A stretch of DNA of 64,000 nt, taken from positions 32,001-96,000 of the IMG/VR virus record IMGVR_UViG_3300007512_000012; one strand, given 5' to 3'. The notes under the pieces were generated by a model. That model was not told where the DNA came from. It ran no database searches and saw only the letters and a list, made by a program, of their open reading frames with translations. Shown here piece by piece: positions 34,771-41,269 of the stretch. The translations under genes and the position numbers were made by a program. Position 1 is the first letter of the stretch. Each line of letters opens with the position of its first letter. This DNA comes from a virus.

Positions 34771-35373
34771 ATGACCAAGCCCCACGAACTCGTCGCCCTC
34801 ATCGACATGGACGGCACCGTCGCCGACTTCGACGGAGCCATGCGACGGGACCTCGCCACCCTCACCAGCCCCGGCGAGCAGGTGATCGCCGCCGGACCGG
34901 ACGACTCCGACGAGCCGCTCTGGCTGAAGGCCCGCAAGAAGCTCACCAAGACCCAGCCGGGCTGGTGGCGGAACCTGCCCGTGTACGGCATCGGGATGGC
35001 GGCCTACACCCACCTGCGCGTCGGGGATGTGCTCGCGGCACCACTCGACCTTCTCGGTCCACGCCTGCGTGCTGCGGTACGGCCCCTTGGTCAGGACCAT
35101 CATCGTGAAGCCCGCGTCGCGCAGGTGACCATCACCGAGGACAAGGGCCTGGTCTACGGCAAGGTGCTGGTAGACGACTGGCCCGCCTACGGCATCCGCT
35201 GGTTGGAGTGGCGGCCTCGTGGCCTGCTGGTGGTCCCGGCCTGGCCCTGGAACACGCTCGACCAGTACCCCGAGCACCTACACCCGAACATCATCCGGCT
35301 CACCGGGGACTGGCCCACGGAGCTTCCCCTGCTGCTGGAGCGCATCGCGGCCATCAAGGAGAGCGCACGCTGA
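34771..35373 (+). CDS. HAD-family 5'(3')-deoxyribonucleotidase with an internal segment inverted
   Basis: LIDMDGTVADF (motif I) and DK..VYGKVLVDD (motifs III/IV) on plus; the motif II segment (VLTKGP...AWTEKVEWC) is on the minus strand at 35021-35117. Confidence 0.85.
   Translation: MTKPHELVALIDMDGTVADFDGAMRRDLATLTSPGEQVIAAGPDDSDEPLWLKARKKLTKTQPGWWRNLPVYGIGMAAYTHLRVGDVLAAPLDLLGPRLRAAVRPLGQDHHREARVAQVTITEDKGLVYGKVLVDDWPAYGIRWLEWRPRGLLVVPAWPWNTLDQYPEHLHPNIIRLTGDWPTELPLLLERIAAIKESAR
35011..35127. repeat. Perfect 10-bp inverted repeats flanking a 97-bp inverted segment
   Basis: CACCTGCGCG at 35011-35020 and CGCGCAGGTG at 35118-35127. Confidence 0.9.
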
Positions 35374-35385
35374 TCGGGGCGTCTT

Positions 35386-35428
35386 AAACGACGAAACCCA
35401 CCGGCCTCCCGAAGGGGCTACGGTGGGT
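35386..35428 (-). terminator. Terminator hairpin, possibly bidirectional
   Basis: Stem ACCCACCG...CGGTGGGT with an inner C-UUCG-G loop, then TTCGTCGTTT. Confidence 0.65.
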
Positions 35429-35857
35429 CCGCAGATGACTGTCACCGGCTGCGGCCTTGTGGGGCCGTTCCCGATGTTGTCCCCGTCCTCCCTTGGGAGG
35501 CCGACTTCCGCAACCGCTCTCGCGGGCTGCTTCCGCCAGACCGAGTCAGGTGAAGGTGATGGTCCCTTCTTCCTCGGCGTGGGTTTCGACCGGAGTTTCC
35601 TCCAGCCAGGTATTGGGCTTGAACCCCTCTACCCTGACCCCTTGTTCAAGAGGGGTCCCATCGTTGAGGCCAGCGGCTAACTGACCCCCTACTCTGCCGC
35701 CTGCTCCCCTTGCCACGGGGTCGGCCTGCGGTAGAGGCCCCGCCGGGTTTCCCCTTTGGAGCGCGCCAGGATGGCTGTCCTGGCTTCCGGTTCGGGGTGA
35801 CTGCGGTGCCTAGTCCCGTCTGCCTCGAACCGTGCCGCTCGGGTCTCCCCGTGCAGC
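35390..35857 (-). ncRNA. Candidate large structured non-coding RNA (~470 nt), family unassigned
   Basis: Own promoter and terminator, no credible ORF, about 12 consecutive hairpins with several GNRA tetraloops. Confidence 0.7.
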
Positions 35858-35864
35858 GAGGGAG

Positions 35865-35893
35865 GTTCTAAACGACCTGGACTCGGGGGTCAA
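35865..35893 (-). promoter_or_regulatory. Sigma70-type promoter TTGACC-N17-TAGAAC with an upstream A-tract
   Basis: Exact 17-bp spacing; AAAAAA tract upstream; points into the structured region. Confidence 0.7.
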
Positions 35894-35914
35894 GCGGTTC
35901 CCGAACTTTTTTCG

Positions 35915-36127
35915 TCAGCGACGAGTTCGGCGGGTGCGTGCCCGGAGGATTCGGTCAGCGTGTGCCTCGATGGCCCGGTTGATCCGGTTGTCGCTGAAGA
36001 AGGGGATCGGCTCTCCCCGGAGCATCCGGTGGGCCAGGGTCTTGATCTTCCCGAAGCGCATCATCCCGTCCAATCAGTTGTCGATGATGAGGGCGGCCAG
36101 CAGGTAGGTGATCGTGCGCGTCGTCAT
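35915..36127 (-). pseudogene. Small ORF interrupted by an in-frame TGA (or a 17-aa leader plus a 49-aa ORF)
   Basis: GGAG RBS; MTTRTITYLLAALIIDN*LDGMMRFGKIK...RTRR*; TGA at 36074-36076. Confidence 0.4.
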
Positions 36128-36151
36128 GCTCGGGTTCTCCAATCCGTTCTG

Positions 36152-36232
36152 CCCCTACTACTGGCCTGCTCCGGCGGCTGAGCCCCGAGATCGAAAAAAG
36201 TTCGAGGGCTCAGAAAAAGCCGCTGGTCGGTG
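36152..36232. promoter_or_regulatory. Second copy of the back-to-back GGCTCAG-N12-GCCAGTAG element
   Basis: Minus strand TTTCTGAGCCCTCGAACTTTTTTCGATCTCGGGGCTCAG-N12-GCCAGTAGTAGGGG aligns with 13663-13726. Confidence 0.6.
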
Positions 36233-36390
36233 GTGATGGTGAAGGCAGGAAGCGAGGCCCCGACAGCCCTTCCCCTCCTGCCGCCACGACGAAGGAGGCC
36301 GGATGAAGTGACGACCGATGCGACAGAATCCATTCCGTCTGACGGCCCCCGGTAGTACCCCTGCCGGGGTGTCCGTCGTTGTGGGGAGCC

Positions 36391-36434
36391 GAAACGACAG
36401 CACCCCCGGAGGCCGAAGCCGCCGGGGGTGCGTC
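36391..36434 (-). terminator. Terminator after the major capsid gene
   Basis: Stem GCACCCCCGG/CCGGGGGTGC with an inner UUCG loop and a TGTCGTTTC tail. Confidence 0.75.
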
Positions 36435-36489
36435 GAGTGGTGTCCCGAAGGAGCGGCCGGGTCACCGACCGCTCCTCACCGGCCCGCTA

Positions 36490-37362
36490 CTAGCGGGTGA
36501 CGGTCAGGCGGGCGAGGCCGCGCGGGTTGTAGGCCCCGAGGCCCAGGTTCTCGAAGATCGAGAAGCCGATCATCCGGCGCTTCGGGTCGTCGGCCGACAG
36601 GACCGTCAGCTCGGTGCGGACCGGGATGCGGCCGAACATCTCCGGCTCGCAGCACAGGTACACCGTGCCGTTGGGCACGAGGCGGCTGGTGACGACGTTG
36701 GCCCCGTAGATGACCCCCTGGAGGCCCGTCTTCAGGAGCGTCGCCTGCGACTCGATGTCGAGGATGTCGCGGCCGAACTTGCGGATGTCCGCGTAGTCCC
36801 GCGCGTTCATGTAGATGCGGGCGACCCGGAGGTCGTGCCGCTCGATGAGCGCGAAGGCGTCCGCCAGCACCGCGCCCGAGATCGGGGCGATGACGGGGAT
36901 GTCGGCGTTGAGCTGACCCGGCAGGGAGTCGAAGCCCGCCGTGGCGACGGCGTCGAGGACGGCGAAGACGCGCTCGTCCTCGGCGGCCTGGATCTGCGCC
37001 CGGCCGAGGTCCTGGGACCGCTCGATCAGGTCGAAGCGGCGCTCCTTGATCTGGGTGAGCGGGATCTCCGGGTTCGACGCGATCTCGAAGAGCGGGAAGA
37101 TCACCCGGCGCGGCTTGGTGACCGCGAGGATGTTCTGGCCCTCTTCGCCGACCACGTAGGCGGTGATGTCGGGGTCCTTGTCGTAGATGGGCAGCGCACC
37201 GTCGGGGAGCTGCTCGACCAGGAAGGTCTTGCGGCCCACGGCGGCGTAGTCCCGCCGCGTGCGGAGGGGCTGCGTCATCGACGCGGCGAGCTTGGCGCGA
37301 CCCTGCGGGGTCTTGATGTACTCGCCGATGATCTTCTGCTTGACGGCGTTGGTGGCGTTCAT
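36490..37362 (-). CDS. Major capsid protein (HK97 fold, Bxz1/cluster C-like type)
   Basis: LAASMTQPLR..RDY, LPDGALPIYD, LFEIASNPEI, AQIQAAEDERVF resemble my recollection of Bxz1-type capsid proteins; follows protease, scaffold and decoration genes; strong RBS and terminator. Confidence 0.85.
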   Translation of the reverse strand: MNATNAVKQKIIGEYIKTPQGRAKLAASMTQPLRTRRDYAAVGRKTFLVEQLPDGALPIYDKDPDITAYVVGEEGQNILAVTKPRRVIFPLFEIASNPEIPLTQIKERRFDLIERSQDLGRAQIQAAEDERVFAVLDAVATAGFDSLPGQLNADIPVIAPISGAVLADAFALIERHDLRVARIYMNARDYADIRKFGRDILDIESQATLLKTGLQGVIYGANVVTSRLVPNGTVYLCCEPEMFGRIPVRTELTVLSADDPKRRMIGFSIFENLGLGAYNPRGLARLTVTR

Positions 37363-38288: not shown

Positions 38289-39806
38289 TCAGGAGAAGCT
38301 GCCGCTCACGTCCGGGTCGGAGGCCCAGAGGTTCGACAGCTCGGCGATCTCGTTGCCGCCGCTGGAGGCGACCTTCGGGACCTGGCCGACCGACTTGACG
38401 CCCTTGGACGCCTTGCGGGCCTGCGGCTGGAGGATGGCCGCGAGGCTGGCCTCCTTGTCGCTGCCCTCGTCGTCGCCCTCGTCCTCGTCCTCGGAGCCGA
38501 AGACCTCGTTGAAGGCGGCCTTGTCGGCGGCCGTCAGCTCGGTCCCGTCCGAGAGGCCCATCGGGTCGAAGCCGGTGGCGAAGAACTCGGCGTCGGAGGC
38601 CTCCTTGTCGGAGCCGCCCTCGTCCTCGTCGTCGTCGCCGCCCTCGTCGTCGGAGCCCTCGTCGTCACCGCCCTCGTCGTCGGAGCCCTCGTCCTCGTCG
38701 TCCTCGGACTTCTTGGCGGCCTCCTTGTCGGAGCCCTCCTCGTCGTCCTCGTCGTCGGAGGCGTTCTTCGAGGCCATCACGTCGCCGCAGGCGATCTCGC
38801 CGTCGTCCACCAGCTCGTCGTCCATGCCGTACTGCATGGCCTGGAGCATCTCCAGCTCGTCGTCGTCGAACTCGGCGACGTGGCCGAAGGCGGTCTTGTC
38901 GGACGCCTCCTTGTCGGAGCCCTCGTCGTCGTCGGACTCGTCCTCGGAGCCCTCCTTCTTCTTGGCCTCGCACATCTCCTGCATCTTGCCGTCGAGCTTC
39001 TCGCAGCCCGCGAGGACCTCGGCCCGAGCGATGATGCCGTCGTTGTCGGTGTCGAGGGACGCGAACATGGCGCGGGGGCCGGTCCAGTCCTCGGCCGTCA
39101 CGAAGCCGTCGCCGTCCAGGTCGAAGGCGTCGAACATCGCCATGACGGGGTTCGCGGCCTTGTCCGAGACGGCCGCCTCTTCCTTCTTCGCCTCCTGCTC
39201 GGACTTGCCGGAGGTGCCGAGGGTCTCGCCGCCGGGGTCGTTCTGGTCGGCGCTCTTGAGCGCCTTCAGCTCGGCCTCCATCGCGGCCAGGCGGGCCTCC
39301 ATCGGGTCCAGGGCCGGGGCCTCGTCCTCGGGGAACATCCCGAGCAGCTCCTCCTCCATCGAGAGGAAGTCGCCGCCGAGGCGCTCGACCGAGGCCTCCA
39401 GGGCGGTGTCGTCCATGCTCATGTAGCCGAACGCCTGGTTCTCGATGTCGTCCCACGACGCGGTCTTGCCGAGCGTGGCCCGCGCGAGCACGAGGCACTT
39501 GGCCGACTTGCGCCGGACGAGCTGCATCAGGTTGGCCTGGCGGCCGACCTGCCCGGTGTGGGCCGGGTGGTCCTGGTCCTCGACCCCGTAGCCGGGCGTC
39601 GCGGGCGGGCCGCTGTCCCCGTAGGGCGGCGGGTGAACGTCCTCGGCGAACTCCGAGGGGCCGCCGATGTTGTAGTCGTCCTTGCCCGGATCGTCCTGGG
39701 TGTGGGCCGGGTGGTCCTGGTCCTCGACTCCGTAGCCGGGGGTTGCGGGGGGAGCAGCCGCCTCACGGTCGAGGGCCGCCCACGTCATGCGCTGACGAGT
39801 GCTCAT
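38289..39806 (-). CDS. Putative capsid scaffolding protein, acidic, with an EF-hand pair
   Basis: Lies between protease and capsid genes; ATGA-coupled; DLDGDGFVTAED and DTDNDGIIARAE loops; D/E-rich repeats. Confidence 0.7.
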   Translation of the reverse strand: MSTRQRMTWAALDREAAAPPATPGYGVEDQDHPAHTQDDPGKDDYNIGGPSEFAEDVHPPPYGDSGPPATPGYGVEDQDHPAHTGQVGRQANLMQLVRRKSAKCLVLARATLGKTASWDDIENQAFGYMSMDDTALEASVERLGGDFLSMEEELLGMFPEDEAPALDPMEARLAAMEAELKALKSADQNDPGGETLGTSGKSEQEAKKEEAAVSDKAANPVMAMFDAFDLDGDGFVTAEDWTGPRAMFASLDTDNDGIIARAEVLAGCEKLDGKMQEMCEAKKKEGSEDESDDDEGSDKEASDKTAFGHVAEFDDDELEMLQAMQYGMDDELVDDGEIACGDVMASKNASDDEDDEEGSDKEAAKKSEDDEDEGSDDEGGDDEGSDDEGGDDDEDEGGSDKEASDAEFFATGFDPMGLSDGTELTAADKAAFNEVFGSEDEDEGDDEGSDKEASLAAILQPQARKASKGVKSVGQVPKVASSGGNEIAELSNLWASDPDVSGSFS

Positions 39807-41269
39807 CGCTTCGTCTCCTTGCCTGTGGCGACTGCCAGGGATGGGTTCCTGCTCCCGTTGCGATCCTGGCCTCGCCGCGAGATGAGCTTGCCGAGCTTGA
39901 TCAAGGTCTGTGCCTCGGCGGTTGTGGGCTTGCGGCCGAGCGCCGCTCGACAAGCCCGGAGGAATTGACTCGACGAGCTGTACTCGCCGATGTCGCCGAG
40001 CTGCGCAGCAGCCCGGTACACAGGCACGGGGATCTCCACCCCGTACTCCGCGTGCAGTAGGGCCACCTTGTCCATCAGGTCGGTGTCGCTCGAAGCGTGC
40101 CGACAGAGGAAAGCCACAGTGGCGTCGTACACCGCCGCCTGCTTGACCACGTTGTCGTTGGGAGCCGCCGAAGACTCCTCGGGACCGAGGGCCTCGTCGA
40201 GGTCCTTCTGGTCCATGTCCTTCTTGAGCTTCTTCTTGACCCGATCCCGCATGTGATCGGTCAGCTCACGTTCCATGTCGTCGAACGGGCCGCCCTCGTC
40301 CTTCTTCTCGGCCGGGGCGTCCACGTCGTCGTCTTCGTCGCCCCACCCGGCCATGAAGTGGTCGCCGCCGAAGGCGAGGGCAGCGGCCTTGCGGCGGGTG
40401 CCCTTCGTCCACTCCTCCGGGGGAGTCGCGAGGATGGCCGAGGCGGCCTTGCCGAGCTTGTCGCCCTGGTGGATGGCGAGCACGTTGCGGAGGACCGCGC
40501 CCGTGAAGGCGGGGGTGCCGACCCAGGACGCCTCGATGAAGTGGACGCCGCCGGTCGGGTCGAGGCTCGGGTGACCGCACAGCTCCGCGACGCGGTGCTG
40601 ACGCCCCTGCTCGTCGAAGAAGACGTTCCCCTTCTCGTACTTGATGTGGGGGCACATCTCCGTCTCGTCGGCGGCCCAGTGCCCGCACTTCGTGCAGATG
40701 GTGCCATCGACGGTGCAGCCCATCGACAGGGTGCCCATCTTGCCGGACTCGATGGCCTCGACCAGGTCCGCGTGCTTGCGGTCCGTGGCGATGAGGATGT
40801 CCACGTAGACCGAGTCGCCGATGTCGCGAGCGACCGCGTCGATGACCCGGCCCTTCGACAGCTCCTCGACCTGGACGTGCTCGACGAAGTTCTGCGCCCC
40901 GATGAAGGTCCGGTAGCTCTTGAGCAGAACGTCCCGGTCCCAGGCGTCGAGGTTGTTGTTGATGAACTTGTCGCAGCCGAGCTTGACCCGGAACTTGCCG
41001 TACTTCCGGTTGATCCTGAAGCCGCCCTCGGAGTGCTTGCCGAGCTTCGTGTTCGGCGGCTCGAAGGTGTCCACCGACGCCACGATGGTCGCGTGGGTCA
41101 GCAGGTAGTCGCTCGGGTTGAAGGGCTTGCCGAAGATCTCCGACGCGCGGTCGATGAGGTTCTCCGACACCTCCGCAGCGGCCTTGGCGGCCGTGCGAAC
41201 CTTCGCCCAGCCCGCACGTCCGACGTGCGGGGTGACGACCTCAGCCCTGGCGTACTTCAGGAAGGCCAT
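39803..41269 (-). CDS. Prohead (capsid maturation) protease
   Basis: NNNLDAW...YRTFIG..NFVEH...SKGRVID...LSMGC...CTKCGH...CPHI...FIEASWVGTPAF. Confidence 0.8.
   Translation of the reverse strand: MAFLKYARAEVVTPHVGRAGWAKVRTAAKAAAEVSENLIDRASEIFGKPFNPSDYLLTHATIVASVDTFEPPNTKLGKHSEGGFRINRKYGKFRVKLGCDKFINNNLDAWDRDVLLKSYRTFIGAQNFVEHVQVEELSKGRVIDAVARDIGDSVYVDILIATDRKHADLVEAIESGKMGTLSMGCTVDGTICTKCGHWAADETEMCPHIKYEKGNVFFDEQGRQHRVAELCGHPSLDPTGGVHFIEASWVGTPAFTGAVLRNVLAIHQGDKLGKAASAILATPPEEWTKGTRRKAAALAFGGDHFMAGWGDEDDDVDAPAEKKDEGGPFDDMERELTDHMRDRVKKKLKKDMDQKDLDEALGPEESSAAPNDNVVKQAAVYDATVAFLCRHASSDTDLMDKVALLHAEYGVEIPVPVYRAAAQLGDIGEYSSSSQFLRACRAALGRKPTTAEAQTLIKLGKLISRRGQDRNGSRNPSLAVATGKETKR

Follow-up and report, generated by a model that had tools for sequence, protein, structure and literature searches.

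What does a viral genome encode in an interval of some 470 nucleotides that lies downstream of its major capsid gene and folds on paper into a long series of stems? The stretch in question, a 64,000-nucleotide window with a G+C content of 68%, comprises bases 32001-96000 of the 110,937-bp IMG/VR record IMGVR_UViG_3300007512_000012, and the original prediction, made from its letters alone, had proposed on the minus strand a stand-alone and highly structured RNA gene, possibly of a new class. The elements described there are all present where they had been placed, and the abundance of compensatory change, the promoter and terminator of the unit's own and the huge-phage context support the view of a stand-alone structured non-coding RNA (ncRNA). 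We are highly confident that this is a real structured RNA constituting a new family. With somewhat more reserve, we think it likely that the explanation as a whole is right, namely that this is a stand-alone gene for an ncRNA of ∼470 nt, founding a new family in a small clade of ∼440-kb uncultured huge phages, with the role of a trans-acting binder as a working guess. The RNA and its domains are as follows.

35386-35857, minus strand: predicted structured ncRNA of ∼470 nt, running from the predicted +1 through the U-rich tail
35692-35857, minus strand: 5′ domain, helices H1-H5 (alignment A6; the folds of the single sequences agree)
35536-35691, minus strand: conserved core, helices H6-H10, which holds nearly all of the invariant unpaired sequence
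35430-35535, minus strand: 3′ domain (alignment A7; the folds of the single sequences agree)

Eighty related IMG/VR loci were retrieved with the capsid protein and then searched for the RNA with nhmmer, which finds it in two lineages, one in which it is directly syntenic (L006/L007) and one in which it is displaced ∼4.7 kb by inserted genes (L005/L008). A fourth version, on a metagenome contig in which the 3′ end is cut (L119), was recovered by a two-motif pattern scan of a metagenome collection. Homologs thus do occur near capsid genes, and they covary extensively. The RNAs share ∼55-66% pairwise identity over aligned positions (71% in the best BLAST block); the flanking genes are 70-77% identical between lineages at the nucleotide level, and the capsid proteins are 99% identical. 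Because the divergence of the RNA is about that of the genes flanking it, it appears to evolve at the background rate of the genome while retaining its fold.

The minimum free energy of the 468-nt transcript is −238.9 kcal/mol, compared with −203.9 ± 6.4 for 100 dinucleotide shuffles (z −5.44), none of which folds as well; the complementary plus strand reaches a z of only −2.33. The thirteen stems listed at the outset are all real, in that they recur in each homolog folded alone, and the same 13-helix layout emerges, segment by segment, from each of the four sequences. RNAalifold applied to three of the sequences predicts 129 pairs, 43 of them with compensatory double changes, and in alignments of the three domains 46 of the 128 consensus pairs are changed on both sides. 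In the 5′ domain (alignment A6, four sequences) 91.7% of the cells are paired and 19 of 42 pairs are double-changed; the core (alignment A5, four sequences) is likewise 91.7% paired, with 13 of 42 pairs double-changed; and the 3′ domain together with the terminator (alignment A7, three sequences) is 88.6% paired, with 14 of 44. Shuffles match these values in 0 of 500 trials for each domain, and controls with slid partners give 34-56%, 33-52% and 36-52%, respectively. Helix H3 provides a clear example: the pairing CCAGGA/UCCUGG of the window is replaced by CCGGAG/CUCCGG in L006 and by UUCAGG/CCUGAA in L005.

The sense of the pairing also identifies the functional strand. G-U cells in the core number 14 as against 3 A-C cells, an excess which indicates that the minus-strand RNA is the functional molecule and excludes a cruciform at the DNA level. 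The earlier statement that no credible open reading frame (ORF) overlaps the RNA is borne out as well: mismatches between homologs fall evenly over the three codon phases (p 0.49-0.59), compared with p values of 1e-28 to 1e-35 for the capsid gene as a control, where they concentrate on third positions, the short ORFs that overlap the region are neither conserved nor codon-like, and the frames around a motif that could encode an EGTITF-like peptide are not conserved among the homologs (alignment A3).

The predicted ends of the RNA are set by the following transcription signals.

35907-35912, minus strand: A6 tract, a possible UP-like element, ∼50-55 nt upstream of the predicted start
35888-35893, minus strand: −35 hexamer TTGACC, with TTGACC, TTGACG or TTGACT at the same position in L006, L005, L119 and L017
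35865-35870, minus strand: −10 hexamer TAGAAC, separated by 17 nt from the −35 hexamer and by 7 nt from the 5′ G
35386-35429, minus strand: intrinsic terminator, a hairpin GACCCACCG...CGGUGGGU followed by UUCGUCGUUU, with an inner stem that covaries

The promoter TTGACC-N17-TAGAAC and the G at 35857, which is the predicted +1 and opens the GAGA-capped hairpin H1, had both been recognized in the original prediction, and the hexamers, their spacing and the 5′ G prove to be conserved among the homologs while the letters of the spacer vary. The −10 hexamers of the homologs read TACAAC, TAGAAC, TACTTT and TAGATT; all four members of the large family have a spacer of 17 nt and a gap of 7 nt before the G that opens H1, and a 17-nt spacer is also present in L017, a locus with a much shorter unit that is discussed below. 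A simple sigma-70 scan did not call the promoter, in which TAGAAC lacks the final T, and the pattern TTGACN-N16-18-TANNN[TC] occurs once in the 64-kb window compared with 1.7 expected in shuffles; because the relaxed match is no commoner than in shuffles, we judge the promoter by its conservation among homologs. The terminator, originally placed near 35390-35428, is retained by L006 and L005 and likewise by L011, a related locus with no RNA gene at the site.

An A-run upstream of the −35 hexamer is found in L006, L005 and L119 too, and the possible role of the A6 tract is ambiguous, the tract being overlapped by a plus-strand structure. This structure is a terminator-like hairpin followed by TTTTTT at 35883-35912 on the plus strand, which covers both the A-tract and the −35 hexamer of the RNA gene; it could stop antisense transcripts arriving from the convergent gene, and its counterpart is weak in L005 (a 5-bp stem) and missing in L006.

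The anatomy of the RNA is that of a scaffold of variable helices around fixed elements. H1 begins at the +1 and is capped by a GAGA tetraloop that does not vary. It is followed by H2, which is long and irregular, by H3, a hairpin of 7 bp, by H4, with the invariant tetraloop hairpin GGGGAAACC, and by H5, which is long and variable. In the core, the junction J6/7 (CAACGAUGG) is invariant, as is J9/10, which reads AACCC(A/G)CG after 2-3 variable bases, and the H10 hairpin, GAAGG-G(A/U)CCAUCA-CCUUC, is invariant with its stem included. The 3′ domain consists of a short closing helix around H11 (which has a GAGA loop and internal loops of the CGGAA type) and H12, and then of a two-step hairpin, H13. 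At least three GNRA tetraloops in the RNA are invariant. This large form, with H1-H13, the J6/7 and H4 sequences given above and the H10 hairpin, is met in the window, in L006/L007, in L005/L008 and, truncated at the 3′ end, in L119.

Two candidate tertiary contacts lie within the core.

35658-35662, minus strand: GAUGG of J6/7, 5′ side of a candidate pseudoknot by its complementarity to CCAUC of the H10 loop
35558-35562, minus strand: CCAUC of the H10 loop, 3′ side of this candidate pseudoknot, complementary to GAUGG of J6/7
35644-35650, minus strand: H7 loop CUUGAAC, complementary to the H8 loop
35618-35624, minus strand: H8 loop GUUCAAG, the partner of the H7 loop

In the L017 unit the pseudoknot halves read GACGG and CCGUU, such that the central U-A pair is replaced by C-G and pairing is kept, in what amounts to a single event. 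The complementarity of the H7 and H8 loops amounts to 7 bp in the window (P 0.0006 against shuffles) and to 8 bp in L006, where it is made of other letters, CUCUGUCG and CGACAGAG (P 0.0024); in L119 and L005 it spans only 4 bp (P 0.22) and 3 bp (P 0.62), neither of which is significant. As judged from these four sequences, the loop-loop contact appears to be real in some lineages and is not a defining trait of the family.

Other possible contacts and activities were considered and dropped. A contact between the H3 and H5 loops is not conserved. The nine bases GAAACCCAC of J9/10 (35578-35587), with the preceding C at 35588, could form 10 bp with GUGGGUUUCG (35386-35403), which comprises the terminator's 3′ strand and its tail, in competition with the terminator's own 5′ strand; the complementarity amounts to 8 bp in L005 and is weaker in L006. 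It could represent an alternative long-range closure or could be due to chance, and we do not retain it as a contact, in view of its weakness in L006 and because L011, without the RNA, conserves the terminator just as well. A sponge of the CsrA type was dropped because the CGGAAG motifs recur in junctions of a fixed fold and not in repeated hairpin loops, and an anti-Shine-Dalgarno mimic because L017 does not retain the AUCACCU of the H10 loop, the element that is similar to the 3′ end of the 16S rRNA.

Searches beyond the related loci point to a narrow distribution. R1, a covariance model of the core only, finds one copy in the window's own record and, run with default filters on 48 whole related records (among them complete genomes of 442-619 kb, LR745208.1 and Tunturi_5), no new member, although with these filters reduced forms are missed, the L017 unit being found only with filters off. 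A DNA similarity search of GenBank phages with the RNA region gave no match, and what follows the capsid gene in LR745208.1 and in Tunturi_5 has nothing in common with the RNA. L011 had been considered as a fourth homolog and was rejected, because it shares the terminator only and an ORF fills the site; R1 finds no RNA in its 28-kb record, which represents ∼6% of a genome. Pattern scans (four on IMG/VR, one on a metagenome collection and one on 185,579 GTDB genomes) returned only the known members and L119 as sequences that pass R1 or nhmmer, and the two-motif pattern gave no member in the 185,579 bacterial and archaeal genomes of GTDB. The other matches fail the model or nhmmer, and those that were read lie in coding sequence, for example encoding EGTITF. 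In one further case, L262 1646-1680 (plus strand), the end of an unrelated phage protein (...EEEEGPITFPHDA*) is encoded by DNA that resembles the H10 region (GAGGAAGAAGGG.CCATCACCTTC), a resemblance we judge to be a chance coding match. On the strength of these comparisons the family appears narrow and accessory, and confined to one clade of ∼440-kb phages.

The possible exception to the uniformity of the large form is the unit in L017. This locus lies in a record of 223 kb, and the capsid protein encoded there shares 90% identity with that of the window. At L017 11573-11792 (plus strand) there is a 185-nt promoter-to-terminator unit to which R1, with filters off, gives a score of 19 bits (E ∼4e-4 over 90 kb). 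It has a TTGACT-N17-TAGATT promoter, a bidirectional terminator, a fold with a z of −4.8 and a convergent NUDIX gene orthologous to that found beside the RNA in other lineages; it matches no Rfam family. Counterparts of J6/7, H7, H9 and H10 are kept, and H8 and both outer domains are missing. We lean slightly toward the view that it is homologous to the large RNA, as a reduced form, in which case it would be suggestive of the core being the functional unit, with the caution due to a single sequence of uncertain homology. No further units of this kind were found by nhmmer on the related loci, by BLAST on 41 whole records or among 52 NUDIX-linked loci.

The window's record has an estimated CheckV completeness of ∼25%, which implies a genome of ∼440 kb. 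Its major head protein gene (36490-37362, minus strand) matches phrog_2522 (E 3.6e-48), and the nearest GenBank relatives of the protein are those of LR745208.1, a 485-kb uncultured phage (84%), Tunturiibacter phage Tunturi_5 (49%) and Bacillus phage G (39%); a prohead-protease-like gene lies upstream. Because of this capsid match, the protease-like gene and the huge-phage relatives in GenBank, the surroundings of the RNA gene can be read as the virion module of an uncultured huge phage. Between the protease-like and capsid genes, in the position expected for a scaffold protein, a 554-aa ORF (38289-39953, minus strand) has an EF-hand match (PF00036, E 7e-9). Two features delimit the RNA gene on either side.

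36392-36430, minus strand: intrinsic terminator of the major capsid gene, made up of the hairpin CCCCCGGCGGCUUCGGCCUCCGGGGG and a U-rich tail and also conserved in L007 and L010
34675-35373, plus strand: convergent neighbour, a HAD-like gene with a DMDGTVAD motif (ORF with a G+C content of 0.85 at third codon positions), which ends ∼13 nt from the 3′ end of the RNA

The capsid terminator lies ∼60 nt past the capsid gene, with another long hairpin immediately preceding it, and the RNA gene is ∼630 nt downstream of the capsid gene, beyond this terminator and a small-gene remnant; its original placement downstream of the capsid gene is thus correct, but it is not directly adjacent. Because the capsid gene has its own terminator upstream of the RNA and the gene downstream is convergent, the RNA unit would stand alone. 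In the interval between, a 113-aa ORF (36124-36465, minus strand) with a flat G+C content by codon position (0.63/0.68/0.66) is not coding. The spacer at 36074-36489 (minus strand) folds with a z of −4.4, contains a conserved hairpin, CUGAGCCC...GGGGCUCAG, and retains a 17-codon remnant of a gene with a lipoprotein signal. That gene is intact in L007 and L119, between the capsid terminator and the RNA gene, and its product carries a Cys/Asp-rich motif of the MopE type (PF11617).

The neighbours of the RNA gene vary among lineages and the RNA gene itself is retained; the flanks include the MopE-motif lipoprotein gene, a 370-aa ORF without a Pfam match, and NUDIX or HAD-like genes. ORFs with LAGLIDADG, several helix-turn-helix (HTH) and DNA-methylase-fragment segments directly follow the capsid gene in L005 (6953-9256, plus strand) and L011 (6990-8999, plus strand), and in the latter the ORF, of 669 aa, extends to the shared terminator, the RNA gene being absent from the syntenic site. 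These insertions of LAGLIDADG-type ORFs mark the site after the capsid gene as a hotspot for mobile DNA, and the RNA gene looks like an autonomous accessory unit in a recombination-prone spot. The gene downstream of it is convergent in every case. Both L007 and L005 have a gene for a NUDIX hydrolase there, and the window has one for a HAD-like protein with no Pfam or PHROG match and with relatives in other huge phages. The NUDIX genes of L007 (8276-8722, minus strand), L005 (12191-12616, minus strand) and L017 (11797-12252, minus strand) are orthologous, with 42-54% identity to the L007 protein, and in these three lineages the NUDIX gene and the RNA gene end tail to tail; no NUDIX ortholog was found in the window's 111-kb fragment. 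One may speculate that the NUDIX protein is an enzyme that modifies 5′ ends, beside an RNA that has its own 5′ end enclosed in a hairpin. No TnpB/IscB or reverse transcriptase partner gene lies on the same strand beside the RNA in any lineage.

This arrangement also speaks to the hint in the original prediction of a tie to the capsid or prohead, which finds no support: the gene follows the capsid terminator, sits in a variable accessory spot and is missing at the L011 site. We consider a role in capsid assembly or packaging unlikely because the gene is outside the capsid transcription unit and is missing in a relative with a near-identical capsid protein.

Is the RNA a member of a known family? 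The original prediction could not assign it to tmRNA, RNase P, the signal recognition particle (SRP) RNA or an intron, and Rfam 15 and ARAGORN are likewise negative. At gathering scores, the whole window matches no Rfam 15 family, in keeping with a new class, and a scan of 35200-36100 (901 nt) at E≤10 with permissive filters yields three sub-threshold chance matches only (mir-BART15, ncS035 and sot2652), all at or beside the terminator hairpin and judged meaningless. A tmRNA would combine a tRNA-like domain with a reading frame for the tag, and ARAGORN finds no tRNA or tmRNA in the window or in the whole 111-kb record, itself ∼25% of a genome; covariance models of RNase P, SRP and 6S RNA have no match in the window or in 35200-36100; and for omega RNA/HEARO, retron msr and DRT ncRNAs there is neither an Rfam match nor a partner gene. 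We found no description of this RNA in the literature on large structured and huge-phage ncRNAs.

The closest known things are ROOL (RF03087) and GOLLD (RF01998), and the resemblance is in kind only. These are large phage and prophage RNAs that form RNA-only nanocages, with genes often near tRNA islands and with a function that is unknown, and pairings between their loops that covariation had revealed turned out to bridge separate molecules; in GOLLD the 5′ half is poorly conserved (10.1101/2024.12.08.627333). Like them, the present RNA is encoded by a stand-alone phage gene, is hundreds of nucleotides long, has many helices and GNRA tetraloops, shows covarying loop-loop pairing in some members, and has no known protein partner or function. 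Unlike them, it fails both covariance models, that of ROOL with its conserved multi-pseudoknot fold and that of GOLLD with its universally conserved 3′ domain, is ∼470 nt long as against ∼580 and ∼800, has no tRNA genes in its 111-kb fragment, and is confined to one high-GC clade of huge phages.

Three other comparisons are instructive. The pRNAs of the phi29 family, which the packaging motor requires, have in all members two mutually complementary loops whose letters vary among relatives and whose complementarity drives ring formation. The present RNA is like phi29 pRNA (RF00044) in being a structured phage RNA with complementary loops of varying letters and a gene in the virion module; it differs in having no match to the model, in being about three times larger and in having lost the loop complementarity in two of its four members, and an essential role in packaging is unlikely because the gene is missing at the L011 site and was not detected in complete relatives. 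OLE RNA (RF01071) is chromosomal in Bacillota, is encoded in an operon with partner protein genes and acts as a ribonucleoprotein (PMC12054373). Both are large structured ncRNAs with strongly conserved sequence blocks within a covarying scaffold; the present RNA is phage-borne and gives no match to the OLE model, and the convergent NUDIX gene, which is frequent, is the only exception to its lack of a conserved protein-gene partner. Group I introns (RF00028) have a conserved P3-P8/P7 catalytic core and interrupt a host gene, with exons on both sides. With them the present RNA shares a similar size, a multi-domain fold, GNRA tetraloops and a pseudoknotted core, here a candidate, and a LAGLIDADG endonuclease gene, a frequent passenger of such introns, occupies the same genomic spot in relatives. 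Unlike them it has no Intron_gpI match on either strand, no exons and its own promoter and terminator, and the LAGLIDADG ORF is free-standing and not within the RNA. We conclude that the kind of element is known and that the family is new.

How such an RNA might act can be sketched. The host RNA polymerase, most simply in a sigma-70-type form, would transcribe a discrete and stable RNA; we favour this form of transcription because no other such site occurs among the surrounding late genes. The RNA would act in trans, because no gene follows it on its strand. It would adopt a compact tertiary fold around a core pseudoknotted by J6/7 GAUGG and H10-loop CCAUC, with the peripheral domains docked through their tetraloops, and a precise three-dimensional fold is probably needed because the GNRA loops and the junctions are invariant and one hairpin is conserved in both sequence and pairing. 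The invariant surface of the core might then bind or sequester a host or phage macromolecule during infection, which is our working guess and a tentative one. Similarly, the traits of the RNA would perhaps fit a fixed surface for a partner, be it a protein, the ribosome or another RNA, and would fit an antisense regulator or a simple sponge less well, a preference that we hold lightly.

Several points weigh against this account and are best taken together. The start, the end and the expression of the RNA are predictions only, and the promoter match, taken alone, is not significant. The covariation set consists of four sequences, one of them truncated at the 3′ end, all from one clade, and related sequences can beat shuffle controls, an objection that is countered here by the slid controls and by the variety of pair types. 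In the pseudoknot, GAUGG and CCAUC are both invariant in the four sequences; its sole covariation comes from L017, for which homology is uncertain, and a 5-bp match of short loops is not rare. In L011, with a capsid protein 98% identical to that of the window, the RNA gene is replaced at the syntenic site by the LAGLIDADG-type ORF, and the non-detection in complete relatives means either that the RNA is dispensable or that a three-sequence model is blind to diverged forms. Lastly, this analysis identified no candidate for the binding partner.

Among the alternatives to a trans-acting binder, the one that survives best, while still unlikely, is a self-assembling homo-oligomer, comparable to ROOL and GOLLD, whose homo-oligomeric cages are held by kissing loops and A-minor contacts, to OLE or to the ring of phi29 pRNA. 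Molecules would join hand in hand by pairing of the H7 loop of one with the H8 loop of another, and GNRA loops would form A-minor bridges. The loop complementarity in the window and L006, significant in both and made of different letters, is what one would expect of it, and the covarying loop pairs of ROOL and GOLLD set a precedent for intermolecular bridging (10.1101/2024.12.08.627333). A single nucleotide separates H7 and H8, and end-to-end stacking of the two would point their loops apart, leaving only intermolecular pairing; side-by-side packing, on the other hand, would permit an intramolecular kiss. Against the idea, the complementarity is not kept in L119 or L005, the candidate relative in L017 lacks H8 altogether, and there is neither similarity to the ROOL and GOLLD models nor a tRNA island nearby. 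A more elaborate version, which we regard as slightly less likely again, would make this a third, structurally independent self-assembling phage RNA in which the pseudoknotted core, kept in the 185-nt L017 form, is the functional part and the H8 arm added in the large form, with the H7 and H8 loops, links molecules into a defined multimer that encloses or scaffolds a host or phage component while a huge phage infects its host.

That the RNA is a new ribozyme, with the invariant junctions and the pseudoknot as a catalytic core in the manner of RNase P or group I introns, seems to us improbable. Its size, its multi-helix junctions, the clustering of invariant unpaired nucleotides, the GNRA loops and the candidate pseudoknot all speak for it, these being features typical of large ribozymes. 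The same features occur, however, in the non-catalytic ROOL, GOLLD and OLE RNAs, no Rfam ribozyme or intron model matches, exons do not flank a unit that runs from promoter to terminator, and there is no apparent substrate.

About as improbable, or slightly more so, is an action in cis, in which the RNA would exert convergent or antisense control of the NUDIX or HAD-like gene, or would be a long 3′ untranslated region of the small gene upstream. The 3′ ends of the RNA gene and its convergent neighbour are only ∼13 nt apart, a NUDIX ortholog is convergent in L007, L005 and L017, and the hairpin that the two genes share lacks a U-tract on the plus strand, such that plus-strand transcripts might run antisense to the RNA as far as the 35883-35912 site. 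A covarying 13-helix fold with invariant junctions exceeds what antisense control needs, however, and the convergent coding sequence lies wholly outside the RNA. The convergent gene of the window belongs to a different family, relatives of the NUDIX gene occur in 50 other phage loci without such an RNA, and the RNA has a conserved promoter of its own downstream of a gene that varies among lineages.

We give very little credence to a much diverged GOLLD, ROOL, RNase P, tmRNA or group I intron (permuted or not) beyond recognition by Rfam. Large phage RNAs do diverge fast, Infernal can miss remote members, and the 5′ half of GOLLD is itself poorly conserved (10.1101/2024.12.08.627333). The E≤10 scan of 901 nt returned none of these families, however, and ARAGORN was negative. 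We also know of no conserved region in those families that corresponds to any of the invariant motifs of this RNA. Hardly credible at all is that there is no functional RNA here and that a GC-rich spacer folds by chance or a protein gene has decayed or gone unrecognized, for while DNA of 68% G+C folds well and carries long spurious ORFs, the surrounding spacer folds too (z −4.4) and the motif GAAGGGACCATCACCTTC is found in ordinary coding sequences, where it encodes EGTITF, the 46 compensatory pairs among 128 beat every control, codon periodicity is missing, the EGTITF-like frames are not conserved, and the promoter and terminator are.

Bacterial and phage ncRNAs of more than ∼400 nt with elaborate conserved folds are rare, and the classes understood so far (rRNAs, RNase P, group I and II introns, tmRNA, OLE, ROOL and GOLLD) have each revealed unusual biochemistry or architecture. 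Huge phages have hardly been explored for their non-coding content, and the present RNA contributes a new family from them that is well supported; its sharply predicted ends make it easy to synthesize and test. If the 185-nt unit of L017 is a true reduced form, it would provide a natural dissection of the core from the peripheral domains, and if the contact between the H7 and H8 loops is intermolecular, RNA-only assemblies would have arisen more than twice in phages. For the phages themselves, the patchy accessory distribution, a host-type promoter among late structural genes and the frequent pairing with a NUDIX gene suggest that the RNA modulates infection and does not have a core role in the virion.

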